Shown in pieces: positions 22,080-23,889 of a stretch of 64,000 nucleotides of DNA. Source of the DNA: an uncultured Ruficoccus sp. (GTDB lineage Bacteria > Verrucomicrobiota > Verrucomicrobiia > Opitutales > Cerasicoccaceae). The first letter of the stretch is position 1; the number at the start of each line of letters is the position of its first letter. Position numbers and translations under genes: made by a program. Below the pieces are notes generated by a model. That model had not been told where the DNA came from. It saw only the letters and a list, made by a program, of their open reading frames with translations, and searched no databases. The stretch covers positions 3,591 to 67,590 of the forward strand of contig OZ223473.1 in the NCBI GenBank assembly GCA_965140785.1. The letters are read 5' to 3'.

Positions 22080-23889
22080 TCAGACCTCTTCGCTCTCGTC
22101 TTCCTCGTCGGGCAGTCCGGCCTCCTCGACCAGAGCGTCCGGGACGGGTGCGGCAGCGGCGGGTTCCTCCGGTTCGGGCGGGAGCTTTTTCAAAAACTTC
22201 GGCGTGGCCCGCAAGCGCTCCTCCAGAAGTGCGAGCGTCTCGGAAGAGAGCTTCTCCCGCGCCGCCTCAAAGGGTTTGCTGCCGGGGAAAGCGATCTCGT
22301 CCCCCCTTCGTGGGCGGCGTGTAGTCCTCGCCCTCGTCGAAGCTGTACCCGCTTCCCTCGTCTGCGGAGGCGGCAGAGGCTTCCAGGACCTCCAGCGGCA
22401 CGTCGTCATCAGGCAGGACGATCGGGGGTGATTTGACCGGCTTTTCCGGGGCCGCAGCAGCGGGCGAGGAAGATGTGTCGGGGGCTGATACTGGCGCTTC
22501 GGCCTGTAGGCGTGTGGCGGGAGCCTCGGCGGATTTCGCCGGTGGCACCTCGATGGGCGCTGGTGGCACCTCGATGGGCGCTGGGGCCGACTTGCGGGGA
22601 GCTACAGGCTTAGCCGGAGGTTCCGGGGCCGGGTCCGTGGTTGCACGGGCGGAAGCGGCAGCAGCGGACACGGTGGCTGGCGGGCGCGGGGAAACGGGAT
22701 CGCGCTTGGCCGGTGCCGGTGCCTTGTGCTCAGGCGCGGGCGGTAGGCTTATTTTTTTTTGGCCGGCATCCTCGGGGAGGCCGGCTGCAAGCTGCGAAAG
22801 CTCTTTGATGAGCGAGTCGATCGCTCGGGATCGGCTCTGGTCGATAGCCCGGAGGAGCGCGACCTCGAAGTTGACCCGCTGGGACAGGCCCTGGCGCACG
22901 GTGTGCTCGGCGGCCTGGAGCGCGTCGAGCATCCGGGTCAGCGACTCGGCGGTGAGAGGCGTTCCGAGCATGTCGGTGTGCCCTCCCCCAGTGATCGCCT
23001 CCAGCAGCGCCTGGCGCACGATGCGCTGAATATCCAACAGCAGGCGGTACAGGTCGCGGCCTTCGCTGGCGAGGCGTTCGATGGTGGCGAAAAGCTCCTT
23101 GTGCGCACCGGCGGCCATGGCCTCGGTCAGCGCCTTCAGGTCGTCCTCGGAGGCGAGCCCGTAAACATCGAGCACGTTCTCGTCTGTGATCTTGTCCCCA
23201 CAGAAAGAAATGAGCTGGTCGAGGATGGACTGGGCGTCGCGCATGCCGCCGTCGGCCATGCGGGCGATGGTGGCCAGAGCGGACTCCGTGATGGCGATGG
23301 ATTCGGCTTTGGCGATATCACCGAGCTTGGCGGAAATTTTCGCGTCCGGAATGGGCCGGAATTCGAAGCGCTGGCAGCGCGAGACGACGGTGGGCAGGAC
23401 CTTGTGCGCCTCGGTGGTGGCGAAGATGAACTTCACGTGCGCGGGCGGCTCTTCCAGGGTTTTCAGGAGGGCATTCCAAGCCTGGTTGGAGAGCATGTGC
23501 ACCTCGTCGATGATGTAGATCTTATAGGTGCCCTGGGCCGGGGCATACTGGCACTCCTGGCGCAGGTCGCGGATCTGGTCCACTCCGTTGTTGGAGGCCC
23601 CGTCGATCTCGATCACGTCCATGCAGGAGCCATCCATGATGGCCTGGCTGATCGCAGTGGAGTCGTCCGGGGTGGCGCTGGGACCGCCCTCGGCGTTGAG
23701 GGCCTTGGCGAAGATACGGGCCGTGGTCGTCTTACCTGTGCCGCGGGGTCCGACAAAAAGATACGCATGGGCGATACGATTGGTATCGATGGCGTTCTTG
23801 AGCGTGCGCACGATGTGCTCCTGGCCGACGAGTTCGTCGAACTGCTTGGGGCGCCAACGGCGGGCGATGACCTGGTAGGCTTCTGCCAT
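22080..23889 (-). CDS. dnaX: DNA polymerase III subunit gamma/tau (apparent extra base in C6 run 22301-22306; A9 site at 22752-22760)
   Basis: [50 protein letters not shown]. The acidic tail in ORF 22080-22409 joins as TKGDEIAFP. Confidence 0.93.

Follow-up and report, generated by a model that had tools for sequence, protein, structure and literature searches.

A probable Thermus-type transcriptional slippage site at the gamma/tau boundary of dnaX in an uncultured Ruficoccus (Verrucomicrobiota)

The dnaX gene of the window (the whole stretch of 64,000 nucleotides that was analysed) carries a run of nine adenines on its sense strand, at the point where the sequence shared by the gamma and tau subunits gives way to the tau-specific linker, and both alternative reading frames are closed shortly after the run. 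This A9 site is likely to be a programmed transcriptional slippage site of the type found in Thermus rather than a ribosomal frameshifting site of the type found in E. coli. The gene dnaX is essential for replication, and the synthesis of two clamp-loader subunits from this single gene is a classic case of recoding. The role of gamma is still under debate (bioRxiv 10.1101/2022.11.10.516041; PMC4756838).

The dnaX gene and its predicted products

The gene is encoded by the minus strand and has the following organization in the assembly.

22267..23889, minus strand: dnaX ORF as assembled, 540 aa, tau in frame 0 (ORF list, Pfam and TIGR02397)
22762..23889, minus strand: residues 1-376 with clamp-loader domains I-III, common to gamma and tau (last Pfam domain ending at residue 352)
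22307..22751, minus strand: tau-only Pro/Ala-rich linker, read in frame 0 (from translation)

Pfam searches with the 540-aa ORF identified DNA_pol3_delta2 (1e-42), DNAX_ATPase_lid and DNA_pol3_gamma3, the latter at residues 234-352, and the NCBIfam model TIGR02397 (dnaX_nterm) scored 422 bits. A look-up of the exact window DnaX protein matched no other contig. The part formed by residues 1-376 is 75-94% identical across the family, while the tau linker is poorly conserved among relatives and the sequence flanking the A-run diverges freely. Termination in either of the alternative frames would give gamma forms of 379-386 aa with a predicted mass of 41.4-42.1 kDa, in line with the size of about 41 kDa put forward in the initial annotation of this DNA. 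Such forms would retain clamp-loader domains I-III but neither the linker nor the C-terminal parts of tau.

Anatomy of the A9 site

Three elements define the site.

22752..22760, minus strand: A9 slippery run, codons CAA AAA AAA A(TA), template T9 (from the minus-strand sequence)
22749..22751, minus strand: TAA stop reached when the mRNA run is A8 or A11, giving gamma ending in QKK or QKKK (from shifted-frame translation)
22730..22732, minus strand: TGA stop reached from an A10 mRNA run or by a -1 ribosomal shift (from shifted-frame translation)

The minus strand reads GGC CAA AAA AAA ATA AGC, with 376 codons before the CAA, which is codon 377. The run is found directly after domain III, at the gamma/tau boundary. 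Loss of one A leads to ...DAGQKK followed by TAA, and gain of two to ...QKKK followed by the same TAA. The addition of one A, or a -1 ribosomal shift, yields a gamma whose last ten residues end in NKPTARA, followed by TGA. The initial annotation had given exactly this sequence, about 376 codons into the gene, had placed it after the clamp-loader core and before a Pro/Ala-rich linker, and had derived the immediate stop on loss of one A and the NKPTARA ending on gain of one or on a -1 shift; all of this holds at the positions listed above.

The two stops are found 0 and 7 codons past the run, with frame 0 remaining open for 160 codons more. Within this gene the median distance to an off-frame stop is 42 codons, and both alternative frames are closed as fast as here at only 0.4% of its codon positions. 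The TAA at 22749-22751 is made out of the frame-0 Ile codon ATA, a rare one, and a TAA or TAG occupies this position in every family member that has tau in frame 0. The TGA at 22730-22732, whose position is kept in 5/5 genomes of the genus, is built from a CCT Pro codon plus GA; these dnaX genes use CCT for only a minority of their prolines. Genome-wide, AAA accounts for 40% of Lys codons (AAG for 60%), CAA for 23% of Gln codons and ATA for 9% of Ile codons. The anatomy of the A9 site is more than chance, and the recruitment of rare ATA and CCT codons to form the shifted-frame stops points, on the grounds of codon choice, to selection for these stops.

Long homopolymers of this kind are scarce in the genome (4.36 Mb, 59% GC), in which sense A/T runs of at least nine occur only 7 times in about 2800 long ORFs. 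Three of the seven fall in the first 10% of a stop-to-stop ORF, where they probably precede the real start codon; a fourth (C36) belongs to an arginine-rich ORF that is apparently spurious. The remaining three are in real genes, namely dnaX, an IS3 transposase gene and a kinase-like gene. The run of the IS3 transposase coincides with the OrfA/OrfB junction, which is another classic recoding context.

Conservation of the run and change of the tau frame

A first sample of the order comprised 40 other species genomes, 39 of which had dnaX, making 40 dnaX genes with that of the window. Of these 40 dnaX-bearing genomes, 34 have an A9-A11 run at the homologous position, as do all seven further Opitutales genomes drawn from a phylum-wide sample, giving 41/47 for Opitutales. 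It was also found in 79/80 metagenome relatives. Among the 143 run-bearing loci the run length varies between 9 and 13, with no run of only A7 or A8, and no run is interrupted by an AAG codon. The conservation of run and stop in related dnaX genes, which the initial annotation had proposed as a check, is thereby borne out, and its counter-case of orthologs without the run or with mixed AAA/AAG codons is not what is seen, since AAG is missing from all run-bearing loci. Four of the six run-less Opitutales genomes are reduced (0.8-1.3 Mb) and two are not of this group; their lack of the run shows that the site is dispensable in some lineages.

Outside Opitutales the poly-A trait is patchy. The run was not found in any of the six sampled families of the same class outside the order, and elsewhere in the phylum about 9 of 27 families had it, a figure that takes in two sites lying away from the boundary. 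In a random sample of other bacteria it was seen in Planctomycetes, Fibrobacteria, Leptospira, Bacteroidota, Ignavibacteriota and Desulfobacteraceae.

The frame that encodes tau after the run is not constant among the 143 run-bearing loci. The +1A frame holds tau at 72 loci, frame 0 at 37 and the -1A frame at 6, and the remaining two frames are short. Relatives with tau in the -1A frame are L010-L014, L019, L026, L113, L114 and L156. Many relatives, for example L010-L014, L016, L022 and L029, close frame 0 with a stop immediately past the run and continue tau in another frame. Even members of a single genus (g6) differ in this respect, some having A9 and a frame-0 tau, others A10 and tau in the -1A frame. 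Such variation among lineages in an essential gene is tolerable only if recoding occurs at the run, and the swaps of the tau frame imply that the message pool must always hold all three phases. A pool of this kind is the outcome of RNA polymerase slippage on nine or more A/T in T. thermophilus dnaX (PMC1088944, PMC5009743).

These observations bear on the simplest reading of the locus, according to which there is no recoding, the run merely encodes Gln-Lys-Lys-Ile at the start of a lysine-rich linker and tau is the only product. The window tau is indeed a single ORF through the run, and six Opitutales genomes manage without one. Against this stand the conservation of the run at synonymous sites, with zero AAG in spite of its 60% share of Lys codons genome-wide, the frame-0 stop found just past the run of an essential gene in many relatives, and the assembly of shifted-frame stops from rare codons. 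This reading is very improbable. Programmed production of gamma in this lineage, which the initial annotation had proposed, is supported by the conserved run and stops and by the variable tau frame.

A frame break in the distal part of the gene

The tau frame of the assembled gene is interrupted at a second homopolymer, located outside the slip site.

22301..22306, minus strand: G6 run that breaks the tau frame in the assembly, sequence AAG GGG GGA CGA
22080..22300, minus strand: conserved tau C-terminal segment, out of frame, in which stretches of 13 and 15 residues match the tau C-termini of L002-L005

Past the G6 run a conserved continuation, recognized by a stretch of 12 residues, sits in another frame. 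The segment is of about 70 aa, is contained in ORF 22080..22409 of the minus strand and has no Pfam family. Tau is uninterrupted at the G6 position in all four congeners L002-L005. A second recoding site at G6 was considered and rejected because the break is absent from all congeners; the simplest account of it is an error of assembly or a lesion carried by the sampled population. The break shows that the homopolymer calls of this assembly are not flawless and merit a read check.

An effect at the DNA level could in principle account for the A9 run as well, either through an assembly or sequencing error in the homopolymer or through a hypermutable, phase-variable tract. The apparent 1-nt frame error at G6 in the same gene and assembly is compatible with this, as is the difference of one A in run length between the congeners of genus g6. 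The sequence GCCGGCC-A9-TA(A/G) is, however, shared without change by the five independently assembled genomes of the window's genus, and mis-assembly of the run length, a caveat raised in the initial annotation, is unlikely given that A9 with TAA/TAG recurs in the four other genomes of the genus. Whatever the true run length, two of the three frames stop at once and the anatomy of the site is unaffected, while on/off phase variation is implausible for an essential replication gene. An explanation at the DNA level is extremely improbable.

Transcriptional slippage and ribosomal frameshifting

The following course of events is proposed for the A9 site. During transcription of the T9 template, the all-rA:dT hybrid held by RNA polymerase would realign, so that the dnaX mRNA pool would contain A9 messages plus length variants, those with extra A's predominating. 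Messages with A9 or A12 would be translated to full-length tau. Those with A10 would give the gamma form ending in NKPTARA, and those with A8 or A11 would give gamma ending in QKK or QKKK. The occurrence of slippage, its efficiency and the production of gamma are what we infer here from the sequence.

Transcriptional slippage is favoured by the conservation of the run, the interchange of the tau frame, run lengths of at least 9, the stops in the shifted frames, the lack of conserved stimulators of programmed ribosomal frameshifting and the precedent of Thermus. Nine A/T is the length at which efficient slippage of bacterial RNA polymerase has been reported (PMC5009743, PMC1088944), and Antonov et al. 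(2013) used frame changes in both directions as a criterion for transcriptional realignment (PMC3711429).

The main alternative is that gamma, in its NKPTARA form, is made mostly by -1 programmed ribosomal frameshifting on A_AAA_AAA. This is the mechanism that operates in E. coli dnaX (PMC3711429, PMC5009743). The window dnaX has an A_AAA_AAA heptamer in phase, and a Shine-Dalgarno-like GAGG occurs 9-10 nt upstream (GAGG/AGGA 12-13 nt before the run) throughout the genus, with its five genomes, as well as in part of the relatives. The last position of the heptamer is not the G required for A_AAA_AAG, and in E. coli A_AAA_AAA is reported to shift far less readily than A_AAA_AAG (PMC5009743). 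As for possible stimulators, downstream folds differ in every relative, with no common stem, and the Shine-Dalgarno-like element is unevenly kept, being missing from L006, L007 and L010 (family members, genus g6), L019 and L111. A ribosomal heptamer needs just 7 nt, yet the run always has at least 9 and never 7 or 8. In relatives with tau in the -1A frame no tau could be obtained by a -1 shift, and the immediate TAA in the other frame, which would have no role under pure -1 frameshifting, is nevertheless conserved. Ribosomal frameshifting is thus unlikely to be the main source of gamma. The in-phase A_AAA_AAA together with the GAGG upstream in the genus makes a ribosomal share in the NKPTARA form conceivable, and a -1 shift is possible as a minor contributor to it.

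The initial annotation had named two precedents, transcriptional slippage on an A9 run in Thermus thermophilus and -1 frameshifting in E. coli, in agreement with the literature (PMC3711429, PMC5009743, PMC1088944), and it had left both mechanisms as candidates. The evidence assembled here favours transcriptional slippage, the ribosomal shift being the less favoured of the two.

A predicted hairpin preceding the run

The sequence immediately upstream of the run can fold in the nascent RNA.

22762..22785, minus strand: predicted nascent-RNA hairpin GCCGGC-C-UCC-CCGA-GGA-U-GCCGGC (RNAfold)

The 5' arm (22780-22785) and the 3' arm (22762-22767) belong to a stem of 9 bp, separated from the run by a 1-nt spacer (C22761). 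RNAfold gives -15.7 kcal/mol for the hairpin and z = -2.0 for the whole 49-nt segment, and the hairpin ranks in the top 0.3% of 34-nt windows of the gene.

Conservation of the hairpin was assessed at synonymous sites in the Opitutaceae-type clade (16 genomes from four families, 127 conserved four-fold-degenerate codon columns). Third bases are at least 93% identical in 7 of the 127 columns, five of which are stem codons, and the loop codons vary; the hypergeometric p for synonymous conservation of the four arm codons is 3e-6. The stem is rebuilt in genus g2, whose two members (L013/L014) differ within it by a GC to AU exchange. A hairpin adjacent to the run is the local energy minimum in 15 of 71 sequence clusters, against 6.8% expected (p 7e-5).

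Other measures speak against the hairpin. Shuffling of synonymous codons in the hairpin region was mostly non-significant, because GCC (Ala) and GGC (Gly) codons can pair with each other and the peptide AAGLPxDAG alone predicts a hairpin. RNAalifold on the family alignment, for which all 16 species genomes of the family were in use, found covariation of about zero. GC-matched dnaX genes that have no run are just as rich in strong hairpins around the boundary (Mann-Whitney p 0.56). The idea that poly-A dnaX sites in general include a hairpin was rejected, the largest cluster (27 loci, GGCUC-A9 type) and the AT-rich sites of Bacteroidota and Ignavibacteriota being without one.

Conservation of the hairpin as an element of this clade is probable. 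It is a tentative proposal, on the doubtful side, that in Opitutaceae and allied families the hairpin and the run, which is as long as a complete RNA:DNA hybrid, form a terminator-like module. In it the hairpin would act on the upstream end of the rA:dT hybrid by melting or destabilising it, set the frequency of realignment and thereby fix the tau:gamma ratio at transcription. As A9 alone is prone to slippage, the hairpin would modulate slippage and not enable it. This clade-specific hairpin may be the only potentially new element of the site. Were its role as proposed, productive slippage tuned by a hairpin would for the first time be known from a cellular (non-IS) gene, and hairpin-stimulated slippage of RNA polymerase would extend from an insertion sequence to a core replication gene.

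Comparison with known systems

The closest counterpart is dnaX of T. thermophilus, whose A9 run has stops in both other frames and for which transcriptional slippage is experimentally established (Larsen et al. 2000, PNAS 97:1683, as described in PMC1088944 and PMC5009743). The two genes share a sense-strand A9 at the gamma/tau boundary, a tau encoded as a single ORF in frame 0, close stops in both other frames and the resulting rule that a run length other than 9+3n would lead to gamma. They differ in that the window comes from another phylum (Verrucomicrobiota, Opitutaceae) and its slippage is a prediction. A conserved hairpin abuts the run in the window clade, whereas a review of the subject (PMC5009743) describes none for Thermus. 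The locus is a well-supported example of the Thermus type in Verrucomicrobiota.

A second group of related sites was described by Antonov et al. (2013; NAR 41:6514, PMC3711429), who reported 17 dnaX genes that depend on recoding for tau. Among the entries of their Fig. S3 are Coraliomargarita akajimensis, which belongs to Opitutales and has an A10 run, Chlorobi and Bacteroidetes (PMC3711429). Gene, position, kind of poly-A motif and, in Coraliomargarita, the order are the same as in the window, and the two-ORF layout is found exactly in many relatives of the window genome. The window itself differs from it, as frame 0 encodes tau and recoding would yield the short product instead of the long one. 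The frame changes of Antonov and colleagues were in one direction only (-1 at the DNA level), whereas both directions occur here within one order. The review of Atkins et al. (2016; PMC5009743) noted that a change of one nucleotide can exchange the product that depends on recoding. In Opitutales the poly-A site has repeatedly swapped its 'standard' product (tau in frame 0, +1A or -1A), a pattern to be expected only from a permanently mixed pool of transcripts. A practical outcome is that gene callers will annotate such dnaX genes inconsistently, as proteins of 380 aa or of 540-670 aa or as pseudogenes, and annotation pipelines should therefore treat the site as recoding.

The dnaX cassette of E. 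coli combines A_AAA_AAG with an upstream Shine-Dalgarno-like element and a downstream stem-loop. It has in common with the window the gene, a lysine-codon slippery sequence at the same boundary and a gamma that, as predicted for the window, is tau truncated after domain III. The window departs from it in having no AAG, no conserved stem-loop and a Shine-Dalgarno-like element that several close relatives lack, in a run longer than a heptamer, and in a frame logic that varies among relatives.

For the putative hairpin the relevant precedent is the Roseiflexus IS630, where transcriptional slippage is stimulated by a stem-loop (Penno et al. 2015, PNAS 112:E1984, as described in PMC5009743). Both have a GC-rich hairpin directly 5' of a motif of about 9-10 nt, with a terminator-like geometry. 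Unlike the A9 of the window, the Roseiflexus motif is heteropolymeric (U5C5), depends on its hairpin and undergoes only 1-nt deletion; the role of the window hairpin is putative, and most poly-A dnaX sites are without an adjacent hairpin. The kind of site described here is already known, and the window adds to it a Thermus-type layout in Opitutaceae.

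The tau reading frame of the window dnaX

The long product of dnaX, tau, carries a linker and a carboxyl-terminal extension beyond the point where the predicted gamma ends. Its coding frame is interrupted in the window, and the distal part is found in another frame:

22301-22306, minus strand: G6 run at which the tau frame is broken
22080-22409, minus strand: ORF with the conserved tau C-terminal segment, in a frame differing from that of the rest of tau

The out-of-frame conserved segment spans ~70 amino acids. Unlike the window copy, dnaX is unbroken in four other genomes of the genus. 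The probable cause of the break is an error of assembly or a genuine lesion, not recoding.

Other poly-A runs in the genome

Long A/T runs of this organism's genome, which reach T21, are mostly concentrated in two regions that look like AT-rich islands and were possibly acquired horizontally. Two A9 runs lie within coding sequences on other contigs:

C20, about 58-93 kb: region rich in long A/T runs
C39, about 276-304 kb: region rich in long A/T runs
C48:101033-101666, plus strand: IS3-family transposase (Pfam HTH_Tnp_1, HTH_21 and the start of rve)
C48:101203-101211, plus strand: A9 run at its OrfA/OrfB junction
C4:211443-211451, plus strand: A9 run, in the peptide context REKKSAQ, within a ROK/BadF-like sugar-kinase-type ORF

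The OrfA and OrfB parts of the transposase copy are joined in frame 0, and removal of one A from its run leads to ...ALEKKW-stop. This A9 is likely a second slippage site in the genome. In the kinase-type ORF both shifted frames meet stops within 20-33 codons.

Distribution of the dnaX run

The poly-A run is missing from dnaX of four Opitutales with reduced genomes of 0.8-1.3 Mb (loci L116, L117, L118 and L119 of genomes G023, G022, G018 and G033, respectively). Three of these genomes have a DnaX frame that closes soon after domain III, which suggests that their tau extension was lost or strongly shortened. Outside Opitutales, none of the six families sampled from this class has the run. Runs of A9-A11 do occur at the gamma/tau boundary of dnaX in a number of other phyla and classes, and there both frames that do not encode tau stop promptly; mention of these lineages was not found in the literature examined. 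The loci concerned are:

L108: Gemmata
L103: Aporhodopirellula
L088: Leptospira MAG
L095: Fibrobacteria
L062: Desulfobacteraceae
L131, L135, L139, L140, L146, L150, L151, L157: other Verrucomicrobiota
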